A stretch of DNA of 64,000 nucleotides from positions 704,001-768,000 of the forward strand of contig CAVWPA010000003.1 of NCBI GenBank assembly GCA_963756875.1, given 5' to 3'. The notes under the pieces were generated by a model. That model saw only the letters and a list, made by a program, of their open reading frames with translations, had not been told where the DNA came from and ran no database searches. How positions within the stretch are numbered: position 1 is the first letter of the stretch; the number at the start of each line of letters is the position of its first letter. This DNA comes from an uncultured Verrucomicrobiae bacterium. Its GTDB lineage: Bacteria > Verrucomicrobiota > Verrucomicrobiia > Chthoniobacterales > UBA10450. This document shows, in pieces, positions 21,710-63,566 of the stretch. The translations under genes and the position numbers were made by a program.

Positions 21710-21734
21710 GGAAGCTCCGCGGCGAAAACTGTAC

Positions 21735-22991: not shown

Positions 22992-23055
22992 CTCGTTCAA
23001 GCGGCCAGCCCCGGCGGTCGGCCACTGTTTACTCATCGCTAATCACCAGTCATTC

Positions 23056-24720: not shown

Positions 24721-24766
24721 CGCGGCAGCGTTGCGCGGCCGTTTTCATTCCGTAAACTTTGTGGCG

Positions 24767-44393: not shown

Positions 44394-44444
44394 GGGACTT
44401 TACAATTTCTTTTCTTCGAACTTGAGCTGGGTAACGTTCTGCAC

Positions 44445-46544: not shown

Positions 46545-46574
46545 GGTTTCGTGCTGATGGAGCCGCGCGGCCGC

Positions 46575-47879
46575 ATGTTTCGTTTTCTCTATAATTTGCT
46601 TTGGCCCGTCGGCCTTCTCCTTTTTTTGCCGGGCTATCTGATCAAAATGTTTCGGCGCGGCGGCTATCGGTCAAAATTCGGTCAGCGTCTCGGATGGTAC
46701 GATTCCGAAGTGCGCCGGCGGCTGGCACGGCAAAAATCGACCTGGCTGCACGCAGTCAGCGTTGGGGAAGTAGGAATCGCGCTCAAGCTCGCTGCGGAAA
46801 TGCGCGTTCTACAACCCGATCTGCAATGCATCCTGACTACGACCACGACAACCGGGTTCGCGTTTGCCAGTAAAAATGCGCTGCCATGGATCGAGGTAAT
46901 GTACAACCCGCTCGATTTTTGGCCGATCATGCGACGCGCATTTTCGGTGTTGAAACCGGCGAAAATCGTTCTGGTCGAAGCTGAGATCTGGCCGAACCTC
47001 GTGGCGGAGGCGCATGCTCATGGAATTCCAATTGCGTTGGCGAACGCGCGTCTCTCTCCGCGATCGGAGCGGAGATTTCGCCGTTTTCGACAGTTCGTTA
47101 CGCCTACTTTTCGTCTTCTTGATCTGATTTGTGTGCAGGAACCGGAGGATGTCGATCGCTGGGCTGCGCTGGGCGTCGATCGCTCCCGTATCCATTGCAC
47201 CGGCAGTATCAAGTTCGATCCGGGCAACATTTCTCTCGATCCAACGCTCGCGTGCAATGTTCTCCGCGAGTTCGAGATCGACGCAAACCGGCCGATCCTT
47301 TTGGGCGGAAGCACGCATTCCGGCGAGGAGGAAATTCTGGCCAGCATTTTCATGGAACTTCGCTCTCAGTTTCCGGGGTTGTTCCTCGTGATCGCTCCGC
47401 GCCATGCGGAGCGCGGACGAGAAGTTCAACGCAGTCTTAAGCAACTCGGCTTGCGCGTGGTATTGCGCACTCAGCCCATCGCTGATGCGGCGTCCGATTG
47501 CCTGATTCTTGATAGCACCGGTGAACTGCGAAACTGGTATGCTGCGGCGACAATCGTGTTCGTGGGGAAGAGTCTTACCGTCCATGGAGGGCAAAACCCG
47601 GCCGAAGCCATCGCCGCGGGTAAGCCGGTCTTATTTGGGCCTCACATGGAGAATTTCGCCGCGCTCGCGCGATCGCTTGTCGAACAGAAAGGCGCGATAC
47701 AGGTCGAAAACAAGAAGGGGTTGAAAGAAGCAATTTCCACTCTGCTGAACGACGAAAATCGCCGCGAAAAGTTGAGCCAGGATGCGCATCGAGTCCTCGA
47801 AAAGCACCGCTACGCGACGGCGCGCGCCGCGAAGCTGATTAATTATCTCGCGGCCCGGGCTGAAAACCCCGCAGGCTAG
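46575..47879 (+). CDS. waaA: Kdo transferase
   Basis: WLHAVSVGE, EAEIWPN, NARLS, GSTHSGEE, APRHAER, DSTGEL, GGQNPAE. Confidence 0.95.
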   Translation: MFRFLYNLLWPVGLLLFLPGYLIKMFRRGGYRSKFGQRLGWYDSEVRRRLARQKSTWLHAVSVGEVGIALKLAAEMRVLQPDLQCILTTTTTTGFAFASKNALPWIEVMYNPLDFWPIMRRAFSVLKPAKIVLVEAEIWPNLVAEAHAHGIPIALANARLSPRSERRFRRFRQFVTPTFRLLDLICVQEPEDVDRWAALGVDRSRIHCTGSIKFDPGNISLDPTLACNVLREFEIDANRPILLGGSTHSGEEEILASIFMELRSQFPGLFLVIAPRHAERGREVQRSLKQLGLRVVLRTQPIADAASDCLILDSTGELRNWYAAATIVFVGKSLTVHGGQNPAEAIAAGKPVLFGPHMENFAALARSLVEQKGAIQVENKKGLKEAISTLLNDENRREKLSQDAHRVLEKHRYATARAAKLINYLAARAENPAG

Positions 47880-49589: not shown

Positions 49590-50618
49590 ATGCAGACGGC
49601 TTTCTTTCAATCTGGCCTTGAACATCCGCATGGCGGTCGCGCACGCGCCATCATCAAAACGCATCCGGAAGTCCGGGAATTGATGGTGCGCAATCCATAC
49701 ACGGCCCTGATCACGCTGTCACTCCTGGTCCTGCAAACAGCGATTGCATACGGGATGGGAAAACTCGGGTTCGGTTACTGGTGGCTCAGCTTGCTGGTGG
49801 CGTATTGCCTGGGCGCGTTCGCCAATCATGCCAACTACGTCATCATTCATGACGCGACGCATAATCTCATTTTGCGGAGCAAAAGCTGGAATAAAATGAT
49901 CGCGATTATCGCCGATCTTCCCAATTTAACGCCCGGTGCCATGGGCTTTCGGGTTTATCATTTAAAGCACCACTCGCATCAGGGTGATTACGAGCACGAT
50001 GCCGACCTGGCAAATCTCTGGGAGGCGCGTCTGGTGAGCAACATTTGGTATCGCAAGGCGCTCTGGTTGATGCTATTCCCGTTTTTCCAGTTGACGCGCC
50101 CTCCGCGTTTGAAGGCGATTACCATGTGGGACAGGTGGTTCGTCGTGAATTTCGTGTGCGTGGCCGCTTATGACACGGCTGTCGTTTATTTCTGCGGCTG
50201 GGCCGGGTTTTTTTATCTTGCGTTGTCGTTTCTTTTCTCGATCGGTCTGCATCCGGTAGGCGCGCGCTGGATCCAGGAGCATTACACGAACGATCCGGAG
50301 CAGGAGACCTACAGTTATTACGGACCAATCAATCGAGTTTGCCTCAACATGGGATACCACAACGAGCATCACGATTTGTCCTCGATTCCCTGGAATAATT
50401 TGCCGAAATTGCGGGCCATGGCGCCGGAGTTCTACGAGAATTTGAAATATCATCCGTCGTGGACCCGTTTGCTTTTTCAATTCATCTTCGACAAGCGCTA
50501 CAGTTTATTCTCGCGCATCGAACGAATGAAACAGCCCGCGCCCGAGGCGCAAGCCGCCCAATCGATTGTCGATCTTGGAGGCCATGAAGTTGTTAACGCG
50601 GAGGCAATCAATGCCTGA
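49590..50618 (+). CDS. Sphingolipid delta-4 desaturase/C4-hydroxylase-like (DEGS/DES family)
   Basis: N-terminal HPH..R..IIK.HPEVRELM; His boxes HDATH, HLKHH, HNEHHD; GLHPVG..IQEH; ETYSYYGP.N..N.GYHNEHHD..IPW..LP as in DEGS1. Confidence 0.85.
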   Translation: MQTAFFQSGLEHPHGGRARAIIKTHPEVRELMVRNPYTALITLSLLVLQTAIAYGMGKLGFGYWWLSLLVAYCLGAFANHANYVIIHDATHNLILRSKSWNKMIAIIADLPNLTPGAMGFRVYHLKHHSHQGDYEHDADLANLWEARLVSNIWYRKALWLMLFPFFQLTRPPRLKAITMWDRWFVVNFVCVAAYDTAVVYFCGWAGFFYLALSFLFSIGLHPVGARWIQEHYTNDPEQETYSYYGPINRVCLNMGYHNEHHDLSSIPWNNLPKLRAMAPEFYENLKYHPSWTRLLFQFIFDKRYSLFSRIERMKQPAPEAQAAQSIVDLGGHEVVNAEAINA

Positions 50619-51234
50619 ACCGGCGAAACGATTCTACGTTTCGAACAAGAACGAGAGCGTGCCGATGTTCGAAAGTAAGTTCATGGAGTTTTTTTCCCAC
50701 ATCCATCCGGCGACACCGGTGATTTTGTATGTGCCGGTGATCGTTTACCTGCTCTACCGCGCGCTCGCGCCGGGGCAAATGCCGATCCTGGCGGTGATGG
50801 TGCTTTTCCTGATTGGCGTCCTCATGTGGACGCTGTTGGAGTACATGGTCCACCGTTATGTTTTTCATTACGAACCGAAAAGCCGGCCGGGTAAGGCTTT
50901 GCACTTCATCATTCACGGCGTGCACCATGATTATCCGAACGATGCGAGCCGCCTTGTTTTGCCACCCGTGATTAGTGTCCCGATGGCGGTTCTATTTTAC
51001 TTCTTGTTTGCTTTCACTTTTGGGCAATTTGCCCCGGCCATTTCGGCTGGTTTTGGGACGGGCTACGTTTGCTACGACATGATTCACTACGCTACGCATC
51101 ATTTTCCGATGCGAAGCAGGGTCGGTCTTTGGCTCAAACAGTATCATCTGCGCCATCATTACAAAGACGACGAGGCCGGCTTCGGCGTTAGCTCTCCCCT
51201 GTGGGACTATATTTTTGGGACCACCCGAAAATAG
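50611..51234 (+). CDS. Fatty acid 2-hydroxylase-like (FA2H/Scs7 catalytic domain, no cytochrome b5 domain)
   Basis: WTLLEYMVHRYVFH, HFIIHGVHHDYPND..RLVLPP, GYVCYDMIHY..HH, YHLRHHY, FGVSSPLWD..FGT. Confidence 0.85.
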   Translation: MPEPAKRFYVSNKNESVPMFESKFMEFFSHIHPATPVILYVPVIVYLLYRALAPGQMPILAVMVLFLIGVLMWTLLEYMVHRYVFHYEPKSRPGKALHFIIHGVHHDYPNDASRLVLPPVISVPMAVLFYFLFAFTFGQFAPAISAGFGTGYVCYDMIHYATHHFPMRSRVGLWLKQYHLRHHYKDDEAGFGVSSPLWDYIFGTTRK

Positions 51235-51291
51235 TCCTGGCCGGCTCAAAATCGAGATGGAAAGGGCCTAAAAAAAGTTGCGACTAAAGCC

Positions 51292-51319
51292 TTGTCGTAA
51301 GCGGCGAAGGCGCTACAAT
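51292..51319 (+). promoter_or_regulatory. Candidate sigma70 promoter for the spt operon
   Basis: TTGTCG-16 nt-TACAAT. Confidence 0.45.
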
Positions 51320-51463
51320 AGCTGCCCCGATATGGAACTCTCCGGCACACCAGCTGGTGAGCCTTACATAAGGTATTGAAAACAATTAAGTTACATACAA
51401 GCGATTCCAGAGAGTCCTGCGCCATTAACTGGCGAGCGAAGATTTCGCGACTGGGCTCGCAAG

Positions 51464-52744
51464 ATGGATCAGGAAGGGGAATATCAACCGACGATGAGCC
51501 AGGACCCCTTCAAGCTTAGTCTCAGTAATTTCCTGGCCGCCGAGAGCAGCGATCCGCTGCAGGCTCCGCAAAGTTTCACAAATTGGGTGCGCGAGAGCGC
51601 GTGGGCCCGCGAATTGTACGAGCCCGAACTTCTTGGAACGGCGGACGCGCGCACGACGATCAATTACGATGGCAAGCCGGTCTCGGTTATCAATTTTTGT
51701 TCCTACAACTATCTTGGTCTGGCCAATCACCCGGAGGTTATTGCCGCCGCCCATCAGGCGCTCAGCACCCACGGCCTTGGCGCCTGCGGCGCGCCGATGC
51801 TCTCCGGCATGACCGATCTGCACCGGGAGCTGGAGCGGCGCGTTGCAAAATTTCTCGGGCGTGAAGACGCGATGCTTTTCAACAGCGGGTTCGGAGGGGC
51901 GCTCGGGACAATCTCTGGATTTCTTCGCAAGAGCGACGTCGCCATTCTCGACAATCGATCCCATCTCAGTCTCCGGGACGGCGCGATCCTGTCACGCTGT
52001 CGTACGGAAAAATTTGAACATAACGATCCAGAGTCGCTCGATACCGCGTTGAGCCGGCAACGCAATCGCCGTCAGCTTGTCGTCGTGGAAGGCATCTATT
52101 CCATGGATGGCGATTTCGGAAATCTGCAGGAATTGATCAGCGTCGCAGATTTGCACGGAGCCAGCGTTTTCGTCGACGAAGCGCACTCGATGTTGGGTTG
52201 TGGCGAAAACGGTCGGGGCGCGGCCGAAAAGTTCGGCGTGGAGCATCGGATTCCGCTCATCTACGGGACTTTTTCGAAGGCGTTTGGAGCCCTGGGTGGA
52301 TTCGTGGCCGGCTCGAAGGAGACTCTCCAATACCTGCGCTTTTACGCCCATCCCTACGTTTATTCTTGCGCCTTGCCCCCGGTGGTGGTGGCGGGAATTC
52401 TCAAAGCACTCGAGATCGGCATGCGGCAACCAGAGTTGCGAACACAACTTTGGGAGAATGCCGATTATTTTCATGCGCAACTTCGCGGTCTCGGCATCGA
52501 TACCGGGAAATCGACAACCTATATCATGCCGATCGTGATCGGGGAACGCGAGCGCATGTATCGCCTGGGCCATGAGCTGCGCCGGCGCGGTTTGTGGGTT
52601 GCACCGGTGGATTATCCGGCCGTGCCGTTGAATCGAGTCTGCTTCCGGGCCTGCGTTTCCGCCAAACACACGCGGGCTGACCTCGACGAAGCGCTCAATA
52701 TTCTCGAGGACACGCTGGTTCCGGCTGCGCTCCAAAGCGCCTGA
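51464..52744 (+). CDS. spt: Alpha-oxoamine synthase, probable serine palmitoyltransferase
   Basis: NFCSYNYLGL, VEGIYSMDGD, VDEAHS, GTFSKAFG (PLP Lys); specificity inferred from the neighbouring genes. Confidence 0.78.
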   Translation: MDQEGEYQPTMSQDPFKLSLSNFLAAESSDPLQAPQSFTNWVRESAWARELYEPELLGTADARTTINYDGKPVSVINFCSYNYLGLANHPEVIAAAHQALSTHGLGACGAPMLSGMTDLHRELERRVAKFLGREDAMLFNSGFGGALGTISGFLRKSDVAILDNRSHLSLRDGAILSRCRTEKFEHNDPESLDTALSRQRNRRQLVVVEGIYSMDGDFGNLQELISVADLHGASVFVDEAHSMLGCGENGRGAAEKFGVEHRIPLIYGTFSKAFGALGGFVAGSKETLQYLRFYAHPYVYSCALPPVVVAGILKALEIGMRQPELRTQLWENADYFHAQLRGLGIDTGKSTTYIMPIVIGERERMYRLGHELRRRGLWVAPVDYPAVPLNRVCFRACVSAKHTRADLDEALNILEDTLVPAALQSA

Positions 52745-52760
52745 AGCAGCGCTTGGCGAG

Positions 52761-53714
52761 ATGGTAATGCCGGAGCAGATTGATTTGCCGCTTTCTCCAT
52801 TGGAAGCGACCTACAAGACGCGTGACGTAGAGGGGATTGTCGATCTTTACTTTTATCGCAAGATCGCGTTCCGCCTGGCGCAGCTTTTCGCCAAACTGAA
52901 GATGACGCCGACGACGGTGACGCTTCTGGGCGGCGTTTTGGGCATCGCCGCCGGGCATTTGTATTTTTATCGCAATCTGCGCCTGAATGTTGTCGGGATG
53001 GTTCTACACATTTGCGCCAATGTGTTTGACAACGCCGATGGTCAGCTCGCGCGGCTGCTGAACCAAAAGAGCAGAACTGGTCGTGTAATCGATAGTCTGG
53101 TTGATCACGTAATATTCCTGAATATTTACGTCCATCTGATGCTGCGATGTTTGGTGGAAGGGGCATCTCTCACCGTCTGCCTGCTGGCCCTTGGCGCGGG
53201 AATCAGTCACGCATTGCAGGGCGCAGCCGCCGATTATTTCCGGAACGCCTATCTTTATTTTGTGAAAGGCCGATCCCGCGCGGATTGGGATTGCTCCGCC
53301 GTGTTGCGGAACGATTATCGCAGACTGAACTGGCGCACCGAGGGTTGGAACAAGTTTCTCCTTGCCACCTATCTGAATTTTACCCGACAACAGGAGCTGC
53401 TGTCGCCCAAGCTGAAACAATTGCGTGACGCGACAGTGCATGATTTTGCCGACGAGATTCCAGGTTCATTACGGGGCCATTATCGGGATATCGCTCGCCC
53501 GATGCTTCGAGGGTGGGGGTTGTTAATGACGAACACGCGCATGTTTTTTCTGTTCCTTTTCCTGGCCATCGACCGGCCCATCTGGTACTTTTGGCTCGAA
53601 GTCAGCGTTTTCAATCTTCTCCTGATTTACTTGATTTTCCGACAGGAAAAAATGGCGCGCGCCTTTCTTGAGCACCCTTATCGGGCGGCAGAAGTAACAA
53701 CAGGCGTGTCTTAA
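52761..53714 (+). CDS. CDP-alcohol phosphotransferase family protein 1
   Basis: DLYFYR..TPTTVT; signature DNADGQLAR..S..GRVIDSLVD. Confidence 0.9.
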   Translation: MVMPEQIDLPLSPLEATYKTRDVEGIVDLYFYRKIAFRLAQLFAKLKMTPTTVTLLGGVLGIAAGHLYFYRNLRLNVVGMVLHICANVFDNADGQLARLLNQKSRTGRVIDSLVDHVIFLNIYVHLMLRCLVEGASLTVCLLALGAGISHALQGAAADYFRNAYLYFVKGRSRADWDCSAVLRNDYRRLNWRTEGWNKFLLATYLNFTRQQELLSPKLKQLRDATVHDFADEIPGSLRGHYRDIARPMLRGWGLLMTNTRMFFLFLFLAIDRPIWYFWLEVSVFNLLLIYLIFRQEKMARAFLEHPYRAAEVTTGVS

Positions 53715-53718
53715 TTCC

Positions 53719-54846
53719 GTGGCGGAAATTGAAATCTCGCAAGTCAGCTCGCATCGTGACCGCGATGCCTTCATTAAGTTTCCCTGGCGCATCTACCGGA
53801 ATGATCCGGCCTGGGTCCCACCGTTAATTATTGAGCGGAAGGCGTTCCTCGACCGGACGAAGCATCCGTTTTACAAACATGGCGACGCCGCCCTGTTTCT
53901 GGCGAAGCGCAGCGGCGAAATCGTCGGTCGAATCATGGCCAGCGACGATCCGCGTTACAACGCGCTCCACGAAACGAACGTTGGCTGTTTCGGTCTCTTC
54001 GAGTGCATCGACAGTCGCGAGGTCGCGGCCGCCTTGTTCGCGGCCGCGGGTGATTGGCTGCGCGCCCGGGGACGCAGCGAGATGATGGGACCGATCGATT
54101 ACTCGACCAATTATGTTTGCGGGTTACTCATCGACGGATTTCAATATCCGCCCACGATCCTTACCTCACACAATCCGCCCTATTACGCTGGCTTGATCGA
54201 AGGCTGCGGCTTTACGAAAGCCAAAGATTGGTACGCCTGGTGGTTTTCGGAGTTTCCCGCTCCGGCGGAACGGTTGCGGAAGATTGCCGTTGCGCGGGCG
54301 GGAAAAATCGGGGTCAAGATTCGACCGATCAAGGTGAGAAAGATCGAAGACGAAGGCCAACGCATCCGGACGGTTTACAATCAGGCTTGGCAGAAGAATT
54401 GGGGGTTTGTCCCCTTTACAGAAGCTGAATCCGAACACATGGCGAAGGAAATGAAGCCGCTGATTCATCCCAAGGGAACATTGATCGCGGAGATCGGCGA
54501 TGAACCCGTCGGCTTTGTTATCGGTGTGCCGGACATCAACGTCGCATTTCGCCGTATCGATGGTCGACTGACTTGGTTTGGTTTGCCGATTGGCTTGATT
54601 AAGCTGCTTTACTACAGATTGAAAATCCGCACCGGCCGGCTCATTGCGCTTGGTGTTGTGGAAAAGTACCGCCGAGCGGGCATCGCCGAAATGCTTGTCC
54701 TTGCTTTGATGGATGCATCGTTCAAACGCGGGTTTACTGGCGAGTTAAGCATGACGCTCGAAGACAATGTCATGGTCAATCGCTTCATCGAAGCAATGGG
54801 CGCGTCGCGATACAAAACGTATCGAATCTACAGCCGCGCTCTGTGA
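53719..54846 (+). CDS. GNAT-fold protein, probable bacterial ceramide synthase (bCerS/YghO-like)
   Basis: FIKFPW.IY.NDP.WVPPL..HPF..VGRI..FGLFEC..GP..STN..GLLIDGF..HNPPYY..N.AW..NWGFVP..PDIN..LGV..YR..G. Confidence 0.75.
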   Translation: MAEIEISQVSSHRDRDAFIKFPWRIYRNDPAWVPPLIIERKAFLDRTKHPFYKHGDAALFLAKRSGEIVGRIMASDDPRYNALHETNVGCFGLFECIDSREVAAALFAAAGDWLRARGRSEMMGPIDYSTNYVCGLLIDGFQYPPTILTSHNPPYYAGLIEGCGFTKAKDWYAWWFSEFPAPAERLRKIAVARAGKIGVKIRPIKVRKIEDEGQRIRTVYNQAWQKNWGFVPFTEAESEHMAKEMKPLIHPKGTLIAEIGDEPVGFVIGVPDINVAFRRIDGRLTWFGLPIGLIKLLYYRLKIRTGRLIALGVVEKYRRAGIAEMLVLALMDASFKRGFTGELSMTLEDNVMVNRFIEAMGASRYKTYRIYSRAL

Positions 54847-56060
54847 TCAGAGAAACTTCTGCGTTTGTTATCCTGGCTGATGAATCGGCCGACTGGAAAA
54901 TTGCAGGCCTGCGCCAACTGGAACGGCTGGTTCTTGCCATTAATGAATTGCGCGACTCCAGCTCGACGGAAGCGCAGCTCGACATTGTTGTCTTTTGGAA
55001 ACCAGAGATTCCGTCTTCAAAGCGCTGGTTGCCGCGAAGCACGGCGGGTATTCGCCTTTTTGACAATAACAAGCGACAGCCTGATTTCGGTGCGCGTATT
55101 TTATCGACGCGATTGCTAGTTGGCCGCGCTGCTCTCCCGGAGTTCATCGCCAATGTGCCCTGTGTTGGAGCCGTAGCGCCAACCATGGATGAATGCCGGC
55201 TTTGGAAGGAGTCCTGGCATGACTTCGAAGTCGCTTGTCAGCGAGCTCTGACCGGGAAGAAGGTTTCACCAGCCTGGCAATACCTCAATGCTTCGGACGA
55301 AATTCCACGGTCGGAGAAAGCATTTCTCCGTCGAGTTGGAAAACCGCAGGATGGAATTGTCTCGCGTTTCATTAATCGACCGATCTCCCGAACGATCACG
55401 CGCGTTTTACTTCGTTCCCAAATAACTCCGGCTGCGTGGACAATATCGATGCTGGTCGTGCCGGTTGCTGCCTTCTTCGTGCTGCGTCGCGGAGATTACT
55501 TCGCTTTCGTAATCGGTCTCGCCATTTTTCAGTTATACAGCGTTCTGGACGGTTGCGATGGCGAAATTGCGCGGGCCAAGTATTTGGAATCGGAGAAAGG
55601 CGGAAGACTCGATACCTGGACGGATATTTTTGGTGGATTCATTTTCATCTTTGGCCTTGGATATGGCCTGTATCGGAAGCATTCCGGCGCCGCGAACGCC
55701 TGGCATTATGTCACACAAGCGATTGCCTGCGTGCTGCTTATCGGAATCAATGAGTGGCGGTTGCGGGGCCGGAGGAGCGAACGAAATGCTCCGCCGGATG
55801 ATTTGATTCCGACTTTATATCCGCGACATAAGGAGCTGATTCATCATTCGGGAATTCTGTTGCTGGGCGAGAGACTTGTGTGGTGGTTGGTTCAGTTTAC
55901 GAAGAGAGACATCTCCATTTTTGTCTTTTTTCTTCTGGCGATCGTTTCCCGTCCGGAATGGATCCTTCCGCTATGGATCGCCGTGACCGCCGTAGTATTG
56001 GTGCTGGCCGAGATCGCGCGGTGGAAACGTGCGCATTCGTCATTGGGTGGACCCCGATGA
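54843..56060 (+). CDS. CDP-alcohol phosphotransferase 2 (DIPPS-like) with a divergent N-terminal domain
   Basis: K..DGIVSRFINRPISR..Q..SVLDGCDGEIARAK..S..GG.LD...D. Confidence 0.85.
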   Translation: MIRETSAFVILADESADWKIAGLRQLERLVLAINELRDSSSTEAQLDIVVFWKPEIPSSKRWLPRSTAGIRLFDNNKRQPDFGARILSTRLLVGRAALPEFIANVPCVGAVAPTMDECRLWKESWHDFEVACQRALTGKKVSPAWQYLNASDEIPRSEKAFLRRVGKPQDGIVSRFINRPISRTITRVLLRSQITPAAWTISMLVVPVAAFFVLRRGDYFAFVIGLAIFQLYSVLDGCDGEIARAKYLESEKGGRLDTWTDIFGGFIFIFGLGYGLYRKHSGAANAWHYVTQAIACVLLIGINEWRLRGRRSERNAPPDDLIPTLYPRHKELIHHSGILLLGERLVWWLVQFTKRDISIFVFFLLAIVSRPEWILPLWIAVTAVVLVLAEIARWKRAHSSLGGPR

Positions 56061-56123
56061 GTAGATTCGGCGTTGGACGGGGGCAGCGTGGCTTGCTACT
56101 ATTCTGACCTTCGTTGTTAGCCT

Positions 56124-57074
56124 ATGGAGTCCACCTTGGCTCAAGATATTGCGCCCGTCTCCCGGCCGATTGGGCCCGGTCTGTCTTTCCGTCTCCGCTA
56201 CAGTCCTTTTTTAGCACAGATGGTGGTGATCCGGCGTTGCAATCTCTCCTGTGGATATTGCTCTGAGTACGACAAATCGAGCGATCCGGTGCCGATCGGA
56301 TTGCTGGAAACCCGGCTGCGCAAGTTGAAGGAACTCGGCACATTCGGCATTTCACTCACTGGTGGCGAACCGACACTGCACCCGGAACTGCCTCGTCTCA
56401 TTCGCATGTGCCGGACCCTGCGTTTCTTTCGCACCGGTATGATTTCAAACGGTTTCTTTTTGCGCCCGGAAATGATTGAAACGCTGAACCAGGCCGGGCT
56501 CCAGGAAATGCAGATTTCGATTGATGGTGTGCATGGCAATGACACAACGCAGAAAGTTCTGAACAACCTCAAGAAACGCCTTCGCTGGCTGCGGGAGCAT
56601 GCCCGTTTTCAAGTTTTCGTTAGCGCGGTCATCGGCGCGTGCCCGCCGGAAGAAGCGGAGGAGGTCGTCTCGTTTGCGACCGAGATGGGCTTCGCCTGGC
56701 GTGTTCTTCTTGTGCATGACGAACATGGTCAGCTCAAACTGAAGAGTGACGAGGTGAAAGCCTTCCGGAGCATCGTGAAAAAACTTCCGAAAAGTTTGAG
56801 GGAGCTTTCCGACTATCGTGAGCGCCTGATCCGTGACGGCACGGCGCCATACAAGTGTCGGGCCGGGAGCCGATATCTTTACATCGATGAATTCGGTAAC
56901 GTGAATTGGTGCTCACAAACCCGTCGCGTTTGGTCCAAGCCCTTGATGGATTATGGGCTGAACGATCTGCGGGAACAGTTCTATCGCTACAAATCCTGTC
57001 ACGCGACCTGCACTCTGGGATGCGTGCGGTCTGCCAGCCAATTGGACAACTGGCGCAAACAATCCGCCGCCTAG
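56124..57074 (+). CDS. Radical SAM protein with SPASM/twitch-like C-terminal cysteines
   Basis: CNLSCGYC, TGGEP, ISNG, ISIDG; C.AG..YLYID..G.V..C..CHATCTLGC. Confidence 0.92.
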   Translation: MESTLAQDIAPVSRPIGPGLSFRLRYSPFLAQMVVIRRCNLSCGYCSEYDKSSDPVPIGLLETRLRKLKELGTFGISLTGGEPTLHPELPRLIRMCRTLRFFRTGMISNGFFLRPEMIETLNQAGLQEMQISIDGVHGNDTTQKVLNNLKKRLRWLREHARFQVFVSAVIGACPPEEAEEVVSFATEMGFAWRVLLVHDEHGQLKLKSDEVKAFRSIVKKLPKSLRELSDYRERLIRDGTAPYKCRAGSRYLYIDEFGNVNWCSQTRRVWSKPLMDYGLNDLREQFYRYKSCHATCTLGCVRSASQLDNWRKQSAA

Positions 57075-57087
57075 CCGAAAATATTTC

Positions 57088-57867
57088 TTATCGCCGTTCG
57101 GGCAGCGCCTGGGCCCGCGTCTGCAACACCCTGGCCGCTTGCTGGAGCATCTGCGGAGTGTCGACGTCCTGCCACCAAGCATCGCCGATATCCGTGGCGC
57201 GGACCTTTCCGTCGGCAGCCATCAAGCGGACACCGTCAGCCAGGCTGCAATCTCCATTGCTCTTGGCGCGTGCGAGATAATCGAAGATCTGGGCGGGGCA
57301 GACGAACAACCCGGTGTCGATTCCATCGTAATGTCGTAGTTCTTTTCCAATAGCGACAATGCGTTCGCCGCGGGTCTGGACTTTCATCGCATCCGCCAGA
57401 TCGAAAATAGAATCGATTTTTCGGTCGACTGCCAGATTGAGCTGGTCGAGATCGGGACTTTTCAGGAGAAGGTCGATGACGGTCTGGTCAAACAAATGGT
57501 CGCTCATGGTCAAAAGAAACGGAGGTTTGACGTGATGAGCGGCGGCAAGAACCGAGATGCCATTCTGTTTTTGCCACTCGCTATTCTTGATAAAACGCAC
57601 TTCCAGTGCGGGCGGTGCCAATCGACTTACCGCAGCGCTCAAACGTTCGGCCTCAAATCCTACCACGGCATTGATTCTCTTGATTCCGGCCCGGGCCAGG
57701 GCGTCGATCGTGTAGGAAATGAGCGGTCGGCCAAGCAGTGGAACCAACGGCTTCGGGAAGGTCGGATCCGCGCCGCGCAACCGGGAACCGGATCCAGCCA
57801 TCAAAATCACTGCCTCAGTAACCAGCCTCCGTTCGAGCGAAGCGGCCGATCCTGGAAGGCTTGTCAT
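57088..57867 (-). CDS. NTP transferase resembling inositol-1-phosphate cytidylyltransferase (IPCT/LicC-like)
   Basis: AVILMAG.GSRL..PKPL, NGISVL, LLTMSDH, K....IGKEL..YD.IDTGLF, W.DVDT. Confidence 0.82.
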   Translation of the reverse strand: MTSLPGSAASLERRLVTEAVILMAGSGSRLRGADPTFPKPLVPLLGRPLISYTIDALARAGIKRINAVVGFEAERLSAAVSRLAPPALEVRFIKNSEWQKQNGISVLAAAHHVKPPFLLTMSDHLFDQTVIDLLLKSPDLDQLNLAVDRKIDSIFDLADAMKVQTRGERIVAIGKELRHYDGIDTGLFVCPAQIFDYLARAKSNGDCSLADGVRLMAADGKVRATDIGDAWWQDVDTPQMLQQAARVLQTRAQALPERR

Positions 57868-58667
57868 ATTCCGTAATACCGCTTCAGGCCCCAAAGGCGA
57901 ACGCGCTGGGGAAGAAATCGAAAGATGAGCGGCGCAATTTTGGATTGAAACGTGTCGCCTACGGTGATGCGCGGGGGTGGATTTGCTGCGTCGATCAACT
58001 TCAGAACATTCTTTGCGACCAGTTCCGGTTCCGGGGCCGCCTTCATGTTGCGATCTACGACGGTCCAGGTCCTAACCACTTTCGCTTCATAGCGCGGATT
58101 GGATTGCGCACTCTTGCTGACTGCATCGTTGAAGGCGGTGCAAATATCGCCGGGCTGGAGATCGACAATGCGCACTCTCGAATCGCCCAGTTCGAGCTGC
58201 ATAGACATGGTGAAGGCTGCCATCGCTGCCTTGGCGGCGTTGTAGGCCGCCATGAATGGAACGGGCAAACGCGAAGCCAGAGACGTCACGTTGACGATGA
58301 GGCCTTCCCCTCGCGCTTGCATCGCGTTGAGGGCCAGACGCATCAACTGCAGGTGTCCGAACACGAGCACCTGAAATTCGCGCGCCGTTTCCTTCGCAGA
58401 AAGATCTTCCGCCGGCCCGAAGTGACCGCTGCCGGCATTGTTGATAACAACATCAAAATGACCGGCTTCCGAAAGCGCGGTTGTAAACGCCTCGTCGATT
58501 GAATGGGAGTCGGACAGATCGAGCCGTACCGCGTGCAAGCGTGGCAGTTGCGGGACGCGACCAGGTTCTCGCGAGGTCCCCCAGATCTCATCTCCACGGT
58601 TGACAAGCGCTTGGGCAATGGCCAGGCCGATTCCGGAACTGGCGCCTGTGAGAAAAATGGGTTTCAT
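57864..58667 (-). CDS. Classical short-chain dehydrogenase/reductase
   Basis: TGASSGIG, INNAG, NVTS, YNAAK. Confidence 0.92.
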   Translation of the reverse strand: MKPIFLTGASSGIGLAIAQALVNRGDEIWGTSREPGRVPQLPRLHAVRLDLSDSHSIDEAFTTALSEAGHFDVVINNAGSGHFGPAEDLSAKETAREFQVLVFGHLQLMRLALNAMQARGEGLIVNVTSLASRLPVPFMAAYNAAKAAMAAFTMSMQLELGDSRVRIVDLQPGDICTAFNDAVSKSAQSNPRYEAKVVRTWTVVDRNMKAAPEPELVAKNVLKLIDAANPPPRITVGDTFQSKIAPLIFRFLPQRVRLWGLKRYYGI

Positions 58668-60229
58668 GAATGACGTTGGATTAAAAACAGCTGCAGAAAA
58701 TGGTGCTTGCTGTGGACGATTACCGAGCGGTCAAATTCGGCCAATGGTACCCGCTGCCAGCCTGCGGGTAACGGCAGATGCGCATCATCGGTATAAACGG
58801 CGACTGAGTTTTCAAGAGCTTGCGGCAAATCGCCCGGAGGCGGCACATCGCGAAACGTTTTGAATTCGGGTGCATACCACTCGGCATGTGGTACGGCATG
58901 GAGAAAGAGCAGCGCCACATTTTTGCGTTGTGAGGGTGGATAGAGCTGCATGAGATAGTGGACCATCCGTGCCGATGGCGGTTGTTCGCGATGGTTTTGG
59001 ATTACGTTTGGGATTGCGATATAAAGGAGCAAAATGGGAAGGGCCAGCGCCGTCCAATTCCACGGGGTGCGCATTTGCAGAAAGCCTCGCAGTATCGCCA
59101 CTAAAAGGAGAGGAAAAATAAGTATGTAGTACCGAGCAGTGCCACCGAGACAGACAAAAATGATCGCAATGTAGATCAGCGCCCACGGCGCGTGAAATTT
59201 CCAGAAAAGCCGGTCTTGCAGATCCCGGGGCCCGAGGATGTAGGCAGCGAATCCCCCGACGATCATCGCGATTCCAATTGCCAGTGTGACCGGCGATTGC
59301 AGAAATCCGAAACCGAGTCCGAACCAGCCGAGAAGGAAGTGTTCGGCGAAACGCGTCGCCAAATAATGAGCGCTCCAATTTCCCGCCCCGATGAAGGTAT
59401 GCGGCTTGTCCAGGCGCCACTGCCATTGGCCGTAGACAAGTTTTGGATAAACAAGCCACGCGGGAACATCAGGTCGCAAACGCGCCTGCAAATACCACAT
59501 CGGCAACAGCCACACTAGGCAGCTCGCGATCAAAACGCCCACGGCCAGGATAGATATCTTCCAGCGAGCATGTCCCATCTTTAACGCCGCGATGAGAATG
59601 ACGATGACAATCAGAATCAATTGAGGTCGCGCGCCGCTAGCAGCGGCTCCGCATAAGGACGCGCCCAACAAAGCGGCCACACTCCGGCGCTGCCAAAAAC
59701 AAATTGCCGCGAAAATCTCCAAACTCAGGAATCCTGCCGCGAGACTATCTGTCATAATTTTCGTCGCCGTCAGCCAAACGGCAGGCATAACCGAGAGGCA
59801 CGCAGCTATCCACCACGCCAAGCGCTCGTTGAGCTGAGATCGGATGATAAGAAACCATGCCGCAATGAAAAGTGCGCCGCCCACACACGACACGAGATGC
59901 AAAGAAGTTTGAGGACTGAGTCCCAAGCCCCTGGTGCCAATCCAGCCGAAGAAAATAAAAAGCGGATACCCCGGTGGATGCGGTTGATTGTTCCAGAGAT
60001 TAAATGCGCGAACACCCATGGCGAAGTTTACGGAATCGAATTCGTCAAGGCCGGCAGAACGTGTCAGCAGGTAAACTACGAACATCACCACAAAGATGGC
60101 GGCGGCTTTGACCGCCGTTTCGTAATCAACCCGGTTTGCGGCAAGCGCGCCGTTCCCTGCTTGAGATTTGTGAAGAATTCGCTGGCCCATCTTCCCACCG
60201 AATCTTCTCGATGCGAGCCGATTCGACAA
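58664..60229 (-). CDS. Polytopic membrane protein, GT-C (ArnT/PMT/DUF2723-like) glycosyltransferase candidate
   Basis: First loop LDEFDSVNFA..PHPPGYPLF, many TM segments, GARPQ; the start codon is uncertain. Confidence 0.65.
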   Translation of the reverse strand: MSNRLASRRFGGKMGQRILHKSQAGNGALAANRVDYETAVKAAAIFVVMFVVYLLTRSAGLDEFDSVNFAMGVRAFNLWNNQPHPPGYPLFIFFGWIGTRGLGLSPQTSLHLVSCVGGALFIAAWFLIIRSQLNERLAWWIAACLSVMPAVWLTATKIMTDSLAAGFLSLEIFAAICFWQRRSVAALLGASLCGAAASGARPQLILIVIVILIAALKMGHARWKISILAVGVLIASCLVWLLPMWYLQARLRPDVPAWLVYPKLVYGQWQWRLDKPHTFIGAGNWSAHYLATRFAEHFLLGWFGLGFGFLQSPVTLAIGIAMIVGGFAAYILGPRDLQDRLFWKFHAPWALIYIAIIFVCLGGTARYYILIFPLLLVAILRGFLQMRTPWNWTALALPILLLYIAIPNVIQNHREQPPSARMVHYLMQLYPPSQRKNVALLFLHAVPHAEWYAPEFKTFRDVPPPGDLPQALENSVAVYTDDAHLPLPAGWQRVPLAEFDRSVIVHSKHHFLQLFLIQRHS

Positions 60230-60280: not shown

Positions 60281-61654
60281 TTGATTGCGAGTTTACGCCG
60301 CTGGGCCAGTCTTACTCTTAGCCGTGGTTCGCCCCGAGATGGTCGCGAGCGGCGGTCGCGCGGTGTTTTTCGGGTAATGCGTCCGCTTTGGTCGGCCGGC
60401 TTCTGGCGATTCTTGTCACCATCGTCTCGGTCCCGCTCACGGTTGGATATCTGGGGAGTGAACGCTACGGCGCATGGGTGACGATTGTAAGCGTTCTCAC
60501 ATTTCTGAGTATTACCGATGCGGGTCTGGCTGCCAGTCTTACAAACGCGCTGGCCAAGGCTCAAGCCGAAGACGCGCGCGATGTCGGCCAGCGTTACGTT
60601 TCGTCCGCTTTCTTTACATTGTCGTTAATTGCGGTGGTCATTCTCATTTTCGGCAATGCACTCGCGCCGCAGATTTCGGCATTTTTGTTTCCAAGTCTGC
60701 AATCCCCAGCCGCGCGCCCTGAAATCGTTACCGCAGTAAGGGCCGCGCTGTCGATCTTCGCGCTGAATCTTCCGTTTCTGGTCAATGCTCGTGTGCTGGC
60801 CGCGCATCAAGAAAGCGCACTGGCCAACCTTTGGAACGTAGCAGGAACCGTCGGCAATCTCGGCGCTATCTCGCTGTTATCTGGTTTCGAGGCAGCCTTC
60901 CATGGCTTATCTTGGGCTGCTTCGGCTTCGGATTGCTGACGAACATCATTTGCGCCATCTGGTTGTTCGGGTTTCACAAGCCGTGGCTGCGGCCGGGGGC
61001 TGCCGGCGTCGCGCCGGCCTTTATCAAATCCCTTCTTTCCGATGGTTGGAAATTTTTCGTAATCGGCATCGGCTGGATGATCAACTGGCAAACGGACAAC
61101 GTGGTCATCGCGCACTTTCTGGACGTGGCGCAGGTGACCCCATATGCTGTCACGTTCAGCCTCTTTGCGCTGGCAACCGGGTTGCAAGCGCTTGCCTATC
61201 AATCGCTTTGGCCGGCTTACACCGAGGCATTCGCGCAACGCGACTACGCTTGGATCCGCCAGACCTTGCGCTCGAATTTCAAATTCAGCTTCATTACCAC
61301 GATTGCAATTCTCGGCACGCTTACGATTTTTGGCAGCGACATCATCCGGCTCTGGGCGGGCCCGATCGCAGTGCCACCATTTTCAGTGATTGTCTGGATG
61401 GCCGTCTGGCGGCTGATGTTATCGACGCTCATGGTCGGGGTTGCCTTCTCAATGCGACCGGACATCTGAAAGGCATGACGATTTACGGCAGTGTCACCGC
61501 AGTCTTAAACCTCATCTTATCGATCTTACTGGCCAAGAGGTACGGCATTACTGGTGTCATCGCCGGGACAGCCATCGCCTACGCCGTCGCCAGCTACATC
61601 CCAACGTTTTTGGAAGTGAGAAGCGTGCTGCGAAAGTGTTGTCCCTCTGAATGA
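60281..61654 (+). CDS. Wzx-like oligosaccharide flippase; three apparent frameshifts (about 60374, 60870, 61440)
   Basis: VPLTVGYLGSERYGAW..DAGL..LTN; QTDNVVIAHFL..VTPY; LWPAY.EA; NLILSILL..YGITG across successive frames. Confidence 0.8.
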
Positions 61655-62860
61655 ATGTCATTATTGACGTTACCAGCTCGTGCCGGTCTGTCCAAAGCAC
61701 CGGCGTTCAGAGGATGACGCGCAAAATTTTCGCGGAGCTTTCGCAACGTCTGCCGGTTACACCGATTTGCTGGAGCGAGATCGGCAGATTTTATCAAAGG
61801 CTCGGCCCCGTCGAGCACAAGCTATTGACCCGTCCTTTTGATGTACGTTCGCGACCGACGACGCGCCCGGAGATTCGCGGTCAAAAATCCGATTGCGGAA
61901 CTCCGGAGGCTCATGTTTCTGCGTCGATTCGATCTGGCGAATTCGCTTACAGAAAACGATGTTTTTATCCTGCCGGATGGTCACCACGATTTGCGGGGTA
62001 GATATCTGCCGCACCTTATCAAAAGAGGGCGAGGCCGATCGTTGGCAATTTTCCACGATGCTGCCAGGTTGCGTCTTGCTTCTCTTTACCGGATTCGCAG
62101 TCGACGTTACCTGGAATACGTCAAATCTCTTTCTGCGTTTGATCTTGTAATCTGCGTTTCCCAGGAGGCACACGATGACCTGCAGGATTTCTGGAGGCAT
62201 CTCGGCTGCAAGGCAACATCGACATGCGTTGAACCTTGGCCCGCTCAGTTGGAAAATGGCGCGTCCGGGGAGAGCCACGATGCCGCAACCAATCTTGTTA
62301 TTTGTGTCAGCTCCCTGGATCCGCGGAAAAATCATTTAGCGCTTCTGGCTGCGGCGGAAAGATTGTGGAGGGAAGGACTCAACTTCGAGCTGCACATAAT
62401 CGGCAGAGGCACGAAATTCCTGGGACTAGGAGTGGTATCGAAAATACGGAAGCTGCGGAGAGACAGCCGGCCGATTCAATGGTTGCGGCATGTCGATGAC
62501 AAGACATTGCAGCGCGAGTATAACCGCTGCCGATTCACCGTTTATCCGTCGTTAATGGAAGGTTACGGCCTGCCCATCGTGGAAAGTTTGTTACATGGGA
62601 AGCCTTGCGTTTGCGGCGACAACGGCGCTCTTGGAGAAGTCGCCCACGGCGGCGGATGTCTGATCGTCGATCAAACGAGCGTGGAGTCGCTAGCCGGCGG
62701 AATCAAAAAATTGCTGCAAGATCGAGAATTGTATATGCAGCTGTGCGCTGAATCGCGTGCGCGAAAGTTCCGTTCCTGGTCAGATTATGTCGATCGTTTC
62801 CTGCGCTATTTGCAAACGACCTCTCCCGCGCCTGCCATTCCTGGCGTTCCGTCACACTGA
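61651..62860 (+). CDS. GT4 glycosyltransferase; frameshift near 61885
   Basis: [38 protein letters not shown]. Confidence 0.85.
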
Positions 62861-63566
62861 GATGCGCTGGCCATGTGGGTGGCTGCTGATGATGCGGCCG
62901 TCCTGCATCTCGTGAATCCAATCGCACGCTTCGGCGATGGCCGGATTATGGGTAACAAGAAGCAGCGCCTTGTGCCCGCTGTGGCACCAGATCCTGCAAA
63001 AGATCAAAGGCGCGTATGCGAGTTGCTGAGTGTCGAGATTTCCAGTCGGTTCGTCGGCCAGAATGACGCGCGGATCGTTGGCCAGGGCCCGTGCGATCGC
63101 CACCCGCTGTTGTTCGCCGCCGGAAAGATGACGGCTCGGACGTCGTGATCTTGTCCCCGAGATCAACCGCTTCGAGCAGCATCGCGGCGCGATCATTCAT
63201 TTGCGACTCGGTCAGCTGGCCGAGTTGACGCATGGGAATCGTGACATTTTCCTGCGCGCGTGAAATCCTCCATCAAGAAATGGAATTGAAAGATGAAGCC
63301 AATCAGCTTCGTTACGCCTTTGCGCCAATTGATCGTCGGCCATATGCGATACCGGTTCCGATTCAATTTCGACCCAGCCGTTGTCCGGGTGATCGAGCAA
63401 TCCGAGAATATAAAGCAGAGTGCTCTTGCCACAGCCGGACGGACCGACCACGGCGTGAATGCTGCCGGGTTCGAGCTCGAGAGAAACTCCGCGCAGCGCG
63501 TGCACGCGCGATTCCTCTTCGCCGAGGTAACGCTCAATTTCCTCGACAATTCAGACAAAGACTCAT
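62852..63566 (-). CDS. LolD/MacB-type ABC ATPase; several frameshifts
   Basis: [64 protein letters not shown]. Confidence 0.85.

Follow-up and report, generated by a model that had tools for sequence, protein, structure and literature searches.

A conserved gene run in a soil Verrucomicrobia family is predicted to encode a ceramide-type lipid, probably with an inositol-type head group

Which lipid is made by a run of ten adjoining genes in an uncultured Verrucomicrobiae bacterium, and what does that lipid carry as its head group? The run occupies 49590-60229 of the stretch of DNA analyzed here (the window; 64,000 nucleotides, positions 704001-768000 of contig 3 of a 2.69-Mb genome in three contigs that is 87.6% complete), with seven genes on the plus strand and three on the minus strand, the two strands being convergent. 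It comprises genes for an α-oxoamine synthase (AOS), a GNAT-fold N-acyltransferase, a classical short-chain dehydrogenase (SDR), a membrane desaturase, a hydroxylase, two cytidine diphosphate (CDP)-alcohol phosphotransferases (CDP-AP1 and CDP-AP2), a nucleotidyltransferase, a radical SAM enzyme, and a GT-C fold glycosyltransferase. Bacterial ceramide synthesis by serine palmitoyltransferase (Spt), the ceramide synthase bCerS, and the reductase CerR has been worked out only recently, and to our knowledge a bacterial route to inositol phosphoceramide is settled only for the phosphatidylinositol (PI)-dependent pathway of Bacteroides, a CDP-inositol route being still a proposal. On balance, we favor reading the locus as an Spt/SDR/bCerS ceramide pathway with CDP-inositol head-group chemistry; that its core would make a ceramide-type lipid we consider very likely. 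The first-pass annotation of this DNA had described ten contiguous lipid genes in convergent blocks. All ten open reading frames (ORFs) lie where it had put them and all the predicted domains were found, with Pfam scores above the curated cut-offs for every protein (Table 1).

The arrangement recurs well beyond this genome. Related loci were taken as the best 80 of 238 stretches encoding a GNAT relative (one genome per species; GNAT 67 to 84% identical to that of the window), and neighbors were counted only at loci with enough flanking DNA, the GNAT itself being present by construction. The titles of these loci are mostly Verrucomicrobiota, Chthoniobacterales, Spartobacteria, or Candidatus Udaeobacter, with a few carrying other phylum labels; the probable Verrucomicrobiota soil lineage named at first pass can accordingly be narrowed to the Chthoniobacterales, related to Udaeobacter. 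Since the neighbors recur in the same order and orientation across the related loci, the arrangement is far from a chance one. Synteny across Chthoniobacterales genomes had been put forward as a check, and the core genes (AOS, CDP-AP1, nucleotidyltransferase, and SDR) are indeed kept. The ten genes as a single unit hold up only in part: core and tailoring genes are mostly conserved, whereas the radical SAM and GT-C genes occur in a minority of the scored loci (Table 1) and are accessory rather than core. The slot between the GNAT and nucleotidyltransferase genes is variable, being filled by a full-length CDP-AP2, a short form with the membrane domain only, or a weakly CDP-AP-like gene plus a radical SAM gene; CDP-AP2 and radical SAM genes stand together in the window and at locus L015. 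The nucleotidyltransferase gene was found in 2 of 151 genomes evenly sampled from the phylum. In a 101-genome sample of the order it was present in this genome and in 9/9 members of its own family, at 30 to 32% identity in 2 of 10 genomes of one other family, and in none of the 81 remaining genomes. Given this near restriction, the locus is a trait of a single family.

For the ceramide core, the first question is whether the AOS is an Spt or a housekeeping enzyme of the BioF or Kbl type. Its Pfam match and full-length matches to AOS models assign it the fold of a pyridoxal phosphate-dependent α-oxoamine synthase. It is the third such paralog in the genome, beside a separate true BioF (430.7 bits against an equivalog cut-off of 426.45) and a true Kbl (669.9 bits against 493). 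The kbl gene (17180-18436, minus strand) lies near tdh (19416-20468, minus strand; 554.7 bits against a cut-off of 380), with a 241-residue ORF of no known family between them; on the basis of this pair, the locus AOS was ruled out as the housekeeping enzyme. Among PDB sequences, the best match to the locus AOS was the Sphingobacterium SPT (262 bits), followed by E. coli Kbl (250.6 bits), Sphingomonas Spt (227 bits), a cysteate acyltransferase (202 bits), and E. coli BioF (~189 bits).

A maximum-likelihood tree was built from 20 sequences: the window AOS and 8 of the 67 verrucomicrobial AOS from related loci, hand-chosen to span the identity range; the BioF and Kbl of this genome and of E. coli, and a Myxococcaceae BioF; the AOS located by E. 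coli yghO and by GNAT genes in two Myxococcaceae metagenome-assembled genomes (MAGs) and on a Streptomyces plasmid; the AOS of a Roseomonas sphingolipid cluster; and an AOS from a Bacteroides plasmid. BioF (support 99/96) and Kbl (100/100) formed clades of their own, with the window AOS outside both. The five AOS adjoining bCerS-type genes, including that of the E. coli SPT locus, formed one clade (99/98), and the verrucomicrobial clade (100/100; stem 0.91) joined the side of these bCerS-linked AOS at 91/88. The E. coli AOS of the yghO-linked type has been reported to be an Spt (PMC9386255). Clustering with BioF had been named beforehand as the outcome that would speak against a sphingolipid locus; the tree groups the window AOS away from BioF, on the Spt side, and we regard it as a putative Spt-type enzyme condensing serine with an acyl thioester. 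Outside the Verrucomicrobiota, the closest AOS in the tree is 39% identical and is encoded on a Bacteroides thetaiotaomicron conjugative plasmid (L101); AOS of this type occur on small Bacteroides and Phocaeicola plasmids, adjoining a TetR regulator and near a MAC/perforin-domain gene.

The GNAT was the second component expected of a bacterial ceramide pathway. In a protein search of a plasmid collection, which also contains some misfiled chromosomes, it matched E. coli YghO at 39% identity over residues 4-375 (99% of the length). A published figure legend lists "CC_1154, yghO ECD_02850" as the acyl-CoA N-acyltransferase for dihydroceramide (PMC9386255); the link from the window GNAT to Caulobacter CC_1154 runs via YghO and this literature, not through direct sequence comparison. 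The E. coli yghO neighborhood (fatty acyl-AMP ligase, NAD-dependent epimerase, acyl carrier protein, AOS, two LptF/G copies, and yghO) corresponds to the aasR-cerR-acpR-spt genes with cerS, as known from Caulobacter and E. coli BL21 (PMC9386255, PMC11324152). Comparable neighborhoods were found elsewhere: a Streptomyces plasmid carries an AOS-GNAT-epimerase operon whose GNAT is 43% identical to that of the window; two Myxococcaceae MAGs carry an AOS followed by two GNATs (48% and 41 to 43% identical); and on a Roseomonas mucosa plasmid the GNAT gene lies between a sterol-desaturase-family gene and a nucleotidyltransferase gene, in the vicinity of LptF/G copies, a CDP-alcohol transferase, a DAG-kinase-family gene, and a metallophosphoesterase, i.e., a cluster of the Caulobacter type. 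The GNAT is associated with an AOS in all 67 scorable related loci, as well as in E. coli, Streptomyces, and the two Myxococcaceae MAGs. By sequence, the window GNAT belongs to the YghO/CC_1154 ceramide synthase family, in keeping with the bCerS-type enzyme originally proposed. A search for close relatives was uninformative on distant links, the best 120 of 4863 matches all being at least 78% identical, and a related-locus search with a Myxococcaceae GNAT as the query gave 2 loci. In the two Myxococcaceae MAGs (L086 and L087) the bCerS-like GNAT following the AOS is a tandem duplicate, and one 784-residue protein (P0121) contains two fused bCerS-like copies.

The reductase is of another kind than in Caulobacter. 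No epimerase-type CerR ortholog was found in this 87.6% complete genome; the best match to the Streptomyces and E. coli cluster reductase (38.9 bits, E = 4e-10) lies outside the locus. The SDR matched the KdsR model NF049977 end to end at 163.9 bits, against a cut-off of 400, and was the genome's best match to that model. From the position that it keeps in nearly all scored related loci (Table 1), it is a putative 3-ketosphinganine/3-oxoceramide reductase. The expected ceramide core is hence present as Spt, GNAT, and a reductase-type gene, but the reductase is a plain SDR and not of the Caulobacter CerR type.

Two further enzymes, annotated as DES-like and FA2H-like at first pass, would tailor the ceramide. 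The desaturase scores above the cut-offs of PF08557 (Lipid_DES; 23 bits) and PF00487 (FA_desaturase; 29.7 bits), and its three His boxes can be read in the translation (HDATH, HLKHH, and HNEHH); by sequence it is like the sphingolipid delta4-desaturase DEGS. Its neighbors in a protein atlas are bacterial clusters with PF08557 from several phyla, and such genes are therefore no mark of a recent eukaryotic origin. For the hydroxylase, the sole solved relative in the PDB is yeast Scs7p, a ceramide fatty acid 2-hydroxylase (4zr1; 120.7 bits, E = 8e-34, residues 16-204). The window protein is ~207 to 222 residues long and has no cytochrome b5 domain.

We then considered the head group, for which the nucleotidyltransferase is the most telling gene. 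On the archaeal model NF041135, which joins CTP:inositol-1-phosphate cytidylyltransferase (IPCT) and DIPPS, it scored 128.3 bits over the IPCT part, the cut-off of 580 bits applying to the fused enzyme. Its best solved matches were the Archaeoglobus fulgidus IPCT (2xme; 87.7 bits over the full length), an IPCT-DIPPS (4mnd; 87 bits), and the Thermotoga maritima IMPCT (4jd0; 69.1 bits), with the next fold class at 51 bits. Such likeness leaves the substrate unfixed, given the precedent of Caulobacter CpgD, a COG1213 nucleotidyltransferase whose top structural match is the T. maritima IMPCT (24% identity) and which is described as making CDP-glycerate (PMC12275187). We therefore tested linkage to myo-inositol-phosphate synthase (MIPS). 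A Roseomonas nucleotidyltransferase encoded beside a GNAT was tried as a calibrator and dropped, as it scored 23.5 bits against the window enzyme and may be of the CC_1153 rather than the CpgD type.

The genome's one MIPS gene (PF01658, 126.7 bits) lies past the GT-C gene at a distance of 8.7 kb, and 11.6 kb away from the nucleotidyltransferase gene. Across the 101-genome order sample, MIPS was present in 10/10 genomes with a strong nucleotidyltransferase match compared to 9/89 without a match; two genomes had a weak match, one of them with MIPS. In this genome, as in 7 of the 9 other family members, one contig carries both genes, 11 to 19 kb apart. A similar association was seen in the Myxococcota, where 19 of 81 sampled genomes had a nucleotidyltransferase homolog, nine of these at 45 to 52% identity, i.e., far closer to the window enzyme than any found in other Verrucomicrobiota. 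MIPS was present in 18 of these 19 genomes versus 33 of the 62 others, and lay within ~3 kb of the nucleotidyltransferase gene in 6/19 and at 7 to 14 kb in two more. One myxococcal locus reads MIPS, hypothetical protein, CDP-alcohol transferase, nucleotidyltransferase (50% identical), and HAD hydrolase. In two others the nucleotidyltransferase domain is fused to a CDP-alcohol transferase, in one case directly after MIPS. This adjacency is hard to explain unless the subfamily acts on inositol phosphate. The IPCT-like enzyme of the first-pass annotation is thus borne out by its best solved matches and by linkage to MIPS in two phyla, and we think it likely, from homology and gene context, that inositol phosphate is the alcohol that this enzyme activates. 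The high identity across phyla, together with the absence of the gene from most Verrucomicrobiota, hints at gene transfer.

Two side observations concern these gene neighborhoods. At the related locus L041, MIPS (11169-12266, minus strand) directly follows the GNAT gene and no nucleotidyltransferase or SDR homolog was found within 10 kb; the head-group half of that locus is rearranged. In two Myxococcota loci (L112 and L113), a nucleotidyltransferase homolog (51 to 52% identical) lies near an MMPL transporter and a class I/II aminotransferase; L112 also carries genes for a PfkB kinase, a PLD-like protein, a 380-residue CDP-alcohol transferase, an LPG_synthase_TM protein, a GT4 glycosyltransferase, and a polysaccharide deacetylase. 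This region looks like another uncharacterized polar-lipid cluster.

If CpgD can resemble an IMPCT and yet make CDP-glycerate, the locus could build a ceramide whose CDP-activated head group is not inositol but phosphoglycerate, glycerol, ethanolamine, or a sugar phosphate, with the two CDP-alcohol transferases adding one and then a second head-group unit. The presence of two transferases in one locus suits such a two-unit head group, Caulobacter CpgA (CC_1159) is likewise described with a CDP-alcohol transferase domain (PMC11324152), and MIPS lies 8.7 kb off rather than within the locus. Against this stand the full-length match of the nucleotidyltransferase to the A. fulgidus IPCT and its score on the IPCT/DIPPS model, the adjacency of its relatives to MIPS in the Myxococcota, and the low scores of both CDP-APs against the Roseomonas CpgA-like enzyme (29 to 30 bits). 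Nor does the locus hold a ceramide kinase gene, the genome's only DAGK_cat gene being ~5 kb upstream among unrelated genes. We consider a non-inositol head group on a ceramide core improbable. The DAGK_cat gene itself (~44040-44384, minus strand) overlaps the start of an ORF on the plus strand (44064-45815) that is presumed to be AsmA-like.

An inositol head group on ceramide would further require a transferase. CDP-AP1 and CDP-AP2 both exceed the PF01066 cut-off of 22 bits (Table 1) and have the catalytic motif DX2DGX2AR...GX3DX3D intact, the translations reading DNADGQLAR..G..D...D and DGCDGEIAR..G..D...D. The best matches of CDP-AP1 are weak, namely, an archaetidylinositol-P synthase among NCBIfam models (48.3 bits) and a phosphatidylinositol-phosphate (PIP) synthase fusion in the PDB (5d91; 34.8 bits). 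CDP-AP2 scored 79.7 bits over the DIPPS part of NF041135, and 66.2 and 58.2 bits against AF2299 and the IPCT-DIPPS in the PDB. A structure model of CDP-AP2 was made from 22 sequences, the window protein and 21 of 32 homologs (all 15 full-length and 6 of 17 short), in whose alignment the D, G, A, and R positions of the motif are invariant. With the model (pLDDT 84.9), Foldseek returned AF2299 (E = 2e-11) and IPCT-DIPPS (E = 7e-9) at the top, matching over the whole length, including the N-terminal cytoplasmic domain. Both CDP-APs scored 28 to 35 bits against the transferase of the Myxococcota MIPS operon.

These matches also fit an arrangement of two lipid modules side by side, in which the head-group genes are there for glycerolipids or for a soluble compound and not for ceramide: CDP-AP1 would be a PIP synthase, the nucleotidyltransferase and CDP-AP2 would make PI or di-inositol phosphate, and inositol ceramide, if formed at all, would be a transfer product of PI. 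CDP-AP1 is most like PIP and archaetidylinositol-P synthases, CDP-AP2 is most like AF2299 and DIPPS, which use soluble inositol phosphate as their acceptor, the route of Heaver et al. is described as going through PI-diacylglycerol and a HAD enzyme (PMC9246714), and the Myxococcota MIPS operon has a HAD gene and no Spt. The gene order argues the other way. CDP-AP1 sits between the AOS and GNAT genes at gaps of 16 and 4 bases and is retained there in nearly all related loci (Table 1), and the nucleotidyltransferase gene is joined to the SDR gene by an ATGA overlap. In addition, no HAD and no PAP2/AUR1-like transferase was among the Pfam matches of the window genes scanned, and the PIP/AF2299/DIPPS-type matches are all weak (23 to 66 bits). 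We give two separate modules a low probability. In the favored ceramide reading, CDP-AP1 is the candidate for the core head-group transferase.

The two accessory genes may act on the head group. In the radical SAM enzyme, the CxxxCxxC motif and the C-terminal cysteines are invariant in 18 sequences (the window protein and all 17 homologs that are at least 70% identical). Its nearest solved relatives are BlsE, SkfB, viperin, and GDGT-MAS (42 to 47 bits; 29 to 47 bits for all, including MoaA), which act on nucleotides or nucleosides (BlsE, viperin, and MoaA) or on peptides and lipids (SkfB and GDGT-MAS). Viperins came first in Foldseek, but we assign the enzyme no function, as the model had a pLDDT of 65.7 and the matches a TM score of ~0.55, barely above other radical SAM folds. 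The GT-C protein gave no match in NCBIfam models or PDB sequences. The glycosylated head group suggested as possible at first pass would depend on this PMT_2-type gene, which is accessory (Table 1).

The proposed pathway would run as follows. The AOS, acting as Spt, would condense serine and an acyl thioester to 3-ketosphinganine, whose 3-keto group would be reduced by the classical SDR before or after acylation. The GNAT of the bCerS/YghO family would attach an amide-linked acyl chain to give dihydroceramide, and the DEGS-like desaturase and the Scs7p/FA2H-like hydroxylase would tailor the ceramide. MIPS, encoded downstream, would supply myo-inositol phosphate, which the IPCT-like nucleotidyltransferase would turn into CDP-inositol. 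A CDP-alcohol phosphotransferase, with CDP-AP1 as the conserved candidate, would then place phospho-inositol on the ceramide 1-hydroxyl in a Kennedy-type reaction, and the strain-variable CDP-AP2, radical SAM, and GT-C enzymes would probably extend or modify the head group. The desaturated, 2-hydroxylated phosphoceramide with a possible inositol head group that had first been suggested agrees with the homology and context tests of each of its elements.

Several points weigh against this reading. All steps of the pathway are inferred from homology and context, and the chemistry is predicted only. The AOS lies below all three NCBIfam Spt cut-offs (NF047600, 316.1 against 640 bits; NF047599, 312.2 against 500; NF047603, 258.9 against 670) and scores slightly higher on the BioF model (341), although it also falls below the BioF and Kbl equivalog cut-offs (Kbl score, 322). 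The AOS tree contains no ALAS, CqsA, cysteate acyltransferase, or chromosomal Bacteroidota Spt, and its deciding node is moderately supported at a place where long branches meet. The GNAT family is large (8264 clusters at E ≤ 0.001 and 1481 at E ≤ 1e-30 among 1.84 billion representatives, with named members in Thermogutta, Streptomyces, Myxococcaceae, WOR-3, and Spirochaetia), and homologs ~30% identical occur in 46 further genomes of the order sample without the rest of the locus (the family in 56/101); judging by this spread, not every member need be a ceramide synthase. The likeness of the nucleotidyltransferase to IPCTs is by itself no proof of its substrate, as CpgD illustrates; MIPS is common in the Myxococcota (51/81 genomes), and related genomes are not independent samples. 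Finally, assigning either CDP-AP as an ortholog of a transferase of known acceptor was attempted and given up, scores of 28 to 35 bits not permitting it.

The AOS scores in particular bear on a different outcome, in which the enzyme does not use serine and the product is another N-acylated amino-alcohol lipid, such as a sulfonolipid of the capnine type built from cysteate, or a lipid whose 1-deoxy base derives from alanine or glycine. Besides the missed Spt cut-offs, the long stem of the verrucomicrobial clade, with a Bacteroides plasmid AOS as its nearest neighbor, and the match to a solved cysteate acyltransferase would be compatible with such a product. The surrounding genes speak otherwise: the phospho-head-group enzymes require a base whose 1-hydroxyl is free, as is the case only for one derived from serine, and the Lipid_DES desaturase and Scs7p-like hydroxylase are tailoring enzymes of the sphingolipid type. 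An SPT is moreover the best solved match of the AOS. The sulfonolipid and BioF readings were set aside on the strength of this match, the position of the AOS off the BioF clade, and the head-group and tailoring context, and we regard an AOS that does not use serine as very unlikely.

The first-pass annotation knew of no characterized sphingolipid pathway with this combination of genes. It did not take into account two close precedents, Caulobacter CpgD/CpgA (PMC12275187, PMC11324152) and the Bacteroides proposal (PMC9246714). The region CC_1152-CC_1168 of Caulobacter crescentus is described as encoding ceramide diphosphoglycerate synthesis (Spt, AcpR, AasR, CerR, CerS/bCerS, and CpgA-D; PMC11324152, PMC12275187, PMC9386255). 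Going by these descriptions, it shares with the window locus a Spt-type AOS, an N-acyltransferase of the YghO/CC_1154 family, and a COG1213-type cytidylyltransferase with a CDP-alcohol transferase for a phospho head group. Unlike the Caulobacter region, the window locus has no dedicated acyl carrier protein or acyl-ACP synthetase, has a classical SDR instead of CerR, lacks a DAGK_cat ceramide-kinase gene corresponding to CpgB, and has no CpgC (no search aimed at CpgC was made) or LptF/G copies. Its cytidylyltransferase bears a much stronger resemblance to true IPCTs and is linked to MIPS, CpgD being compared via its published description. Its cerS-type gene is in the same run as spt, whereas in Rhodobacteria cerS is described as always lying in another operon (PMC11324152).

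In Bacteroides vulgatus and Prevotella, genes for an NTP transferase, a CDP-alcohol phosphatidyltransferase, and a HAD hydrolase lie by MIPS, and a CDP-inositol route has been proposed from them, though not proven (Heaver et al. 2022, PMC9246714). That alternative cluster, as described, shares with the window an NTP transferase, a CDP-alcohol transferase, MIPS, and CDP-inositol as the inferred intermediate, and its layout is that of the myxococcal locus with MIPS, hypothetical protein, CDP-alcohol transferase, nucleotidyltransferase, and HAD genes. The window differs in having no HAD family among the Pfam matches of the genes scanned, and in that its transferases are interleaved with the ceramide genes while MIPS is 8.7 kb away; ceramide genes of Bacteroidota are described as not clustered (PMC11334938).

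The IPCT/DIPPS enzymes of A. fulgidus and T. maritima and AF2299, which are the best solved matches of the nucleotidyltransferase and of CDP-AP2 by sequence and predicted fold, belong to systems that make a soluble osmolyte, di-myo-inositol phosphate, in hyperthermophiles. In the window, the two functions are instead in separate genes, in a lipid locus and in a mesophilic soil lineage, and Pfam gives no nucleotidyltransferase family for the N-terminal domain of CDP-AP2. With eukaryotic DEGS1 and FA2H/Scs7p the locus shares the DEGS-type domain pair and the Scs7p-like hydroxylase domain, and the predicted product, a hydroxylated unsaturated inositol phosphoceramide, resembles that of fungi and plants. 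The window hydroxylase, however, has no cytochrome b5, and the ceramide synthase, reductase, and head-group transfer are from enzyme families unrelated to the eukaryotic ones. The eukaryotic AUR1-type inositol phosphoceramide synthase draws phospho-inositol from PI and not from CDP-inositol. The insect CPES (CDP-ethanolamine:ceramide phosphotransferase) is likewise a CDP-alcohol phosphotransferase and attaches a phospho-alcohol to ceramide in one step; its chemistry is like that proposed here, while the donor, organism, and subfamily differ.

The layout of the run is given in Table 1. At the point of convergence, 13 bases separate the stop codons of the radical SAM and nucleotidyltransferase genes. 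On the plus strand the GNAT and CDP-AP2 genes overlap by 4 bases, and on the minus strand the two ATGA joins pointed out at first pass can both be read in the sequence (57864-57867, nucleotidyltransferase/SDR; 58664-58667, SDR/GT-C). The desaturase ORF is open from 49404, but its start is likely the ATG at 49590, and relatives align to only ~0.8 of the longer ORF; the true start of the hydroxylase is probably near 50611. Scans for promoters and terminators gave no more sites than in shuffled sequence and were hence uninformative.

Table 1. Genes of the run at 49590-60229 of the window, their best Pfam domain scores, and the number of scorable related loci with a counterpart
Gene product	Position	Strand	Pfam match (bits)	Related loci
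DEGS-like membrane desaturase	49590-50618 (ORF open from 49404)	+	FA_desaturase 90.8; Lipid_DES 27.9	47/55
FA2H/Scs7p-like hydroxylase	50566-51234	+	FA_hydroxylase 74.8	57/63
AOS, putative serine palmitoyltransferase (Spt)	51464-52744	+	Aminotran_1_2 179.4	67/67
CDP-AP1, CDP-alcohol phosphotransferase	52761-53714	+	CDP-OH_P_transf 46.4	69/71
GNAT-fold N-acyltransferase, bCerS/CerS/YghO family	53719-54846	+	Acetyltransf_1 47.3	
CDP-AP2, two-domain AF2299/DIPPS-like CDP-alcohol phosphotransferase	54843-56060	+	CDP-OH_P_transf 35.1	42/71 (E ≤ 1e-10)
Radical SAM enzyme, C-terminal cysteine cluster	56124-57074	+	Radical_SAM 69.3	16/57 (at least 60% identity)
IPCT-like nucleotidyltransferase (ATG at 57867)	57088-57867	-	NTP_transf_3 53.3	48/51
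Classical SDR, putative 3-ketosphinganine/3-oxoceramide reductase	57864-58667	-	adh_short 143.9	48/51
GT-C fold membrane glycosyltransferase	58664-60229	-	PMT_2 29.2 (cut-off 26.1)	12/48

Beyond the GT-C gene, two overlapping ORFs on the plus strand (60388-60939 and 60902-61654) match no Pfam family and have a faint likeness to SpoVB/HfsF polysaccharide flippases. The pair also follows the GT-C gene at L010, L016, and L043, and could represent a single transporter gene, frameshifted or unusual, that goes with GT-C. Further on, a 114-residue ORF (62852-63196, minus strand) holds only the end of an ABC_tran domain and is preceded by a 176-residue ORF without a family match (63193-63723, minus strand); an ABC transporter ATPase split in this way could reflect a frameshift, a pseudogene, or an assembly error. 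Elsewhere in the window, a housekeeping run with cdsA, dxr, an RseP-type M50 protease, and ispG (20643-25768, plus strand) indicates that ordinary CDP-diacylglycerol synthesis is present, and KdtA (46551-47879) that the organism is also a lipopolysaccharide maker.

What is already known comprises bacterial Spt/bCerS clusters, the cytidylyltransferase and CDP-alcohol transferase chemistry of the Caulobacter head group, and the proposed Bacteroidota CDP-inositol route. What this locus adds is a single run uniting ceramide genes with inositol-type head-group genes, in which an SDR replaces CerR, DEGS-like and FA2H-like genes are built in, and a third slot varies; the lineage is new as well. Literature searches on sphingolipids in Udaeobacter, and on serine palmitoyltransferase and sphingolipids in Verrucomicrobia or Chthoniobacter, returned no paper on such a locus within the collection covered; nearest to it is a Black Sea survey reporting Spt-like genes in 22 Verrucomicrobiota MAGs (PMC11334938).

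With an IPCT-like enzyme and CDP-APs beside Spt and bCerS, direct CDP-inositol:ceramide transfer becomes testable with few genes. The locus also displays a reductase swap, a classical SDR standing in for CerR, and carries DEGS-like and FA2H-like genes within the conserved run in most related loci. Candidatus Udaeobacter is among the most abundant bacterial groups in soil, and the envelope lipids of a related lineage therefore matter for soil lipid biomarkers and for the understanding of this uncultured group. We tentatively put forward a wider reading, which we think less likely than not to be right: that a very abundant soil Verrucomicrobia family makes fungal- or plant-like unsaturated, 2-hydroxylated inositol phosphoceramides by a wholly bacterial direct CDP-inositol:ceramide transfer, with the DIPPS-like CDP-AP2 adding phospho-inositol to give a counterpart of (IP)2-ceramide, the viperin-like radical SAM enzyme acting on a cytidine-linked or cyclitol part, and the GT-C enzyme glycosylating in the periplasm. 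If such a route were true, part of the soil inositol sphingolipid pool now ascribed to eukaryotes would be bacterial.

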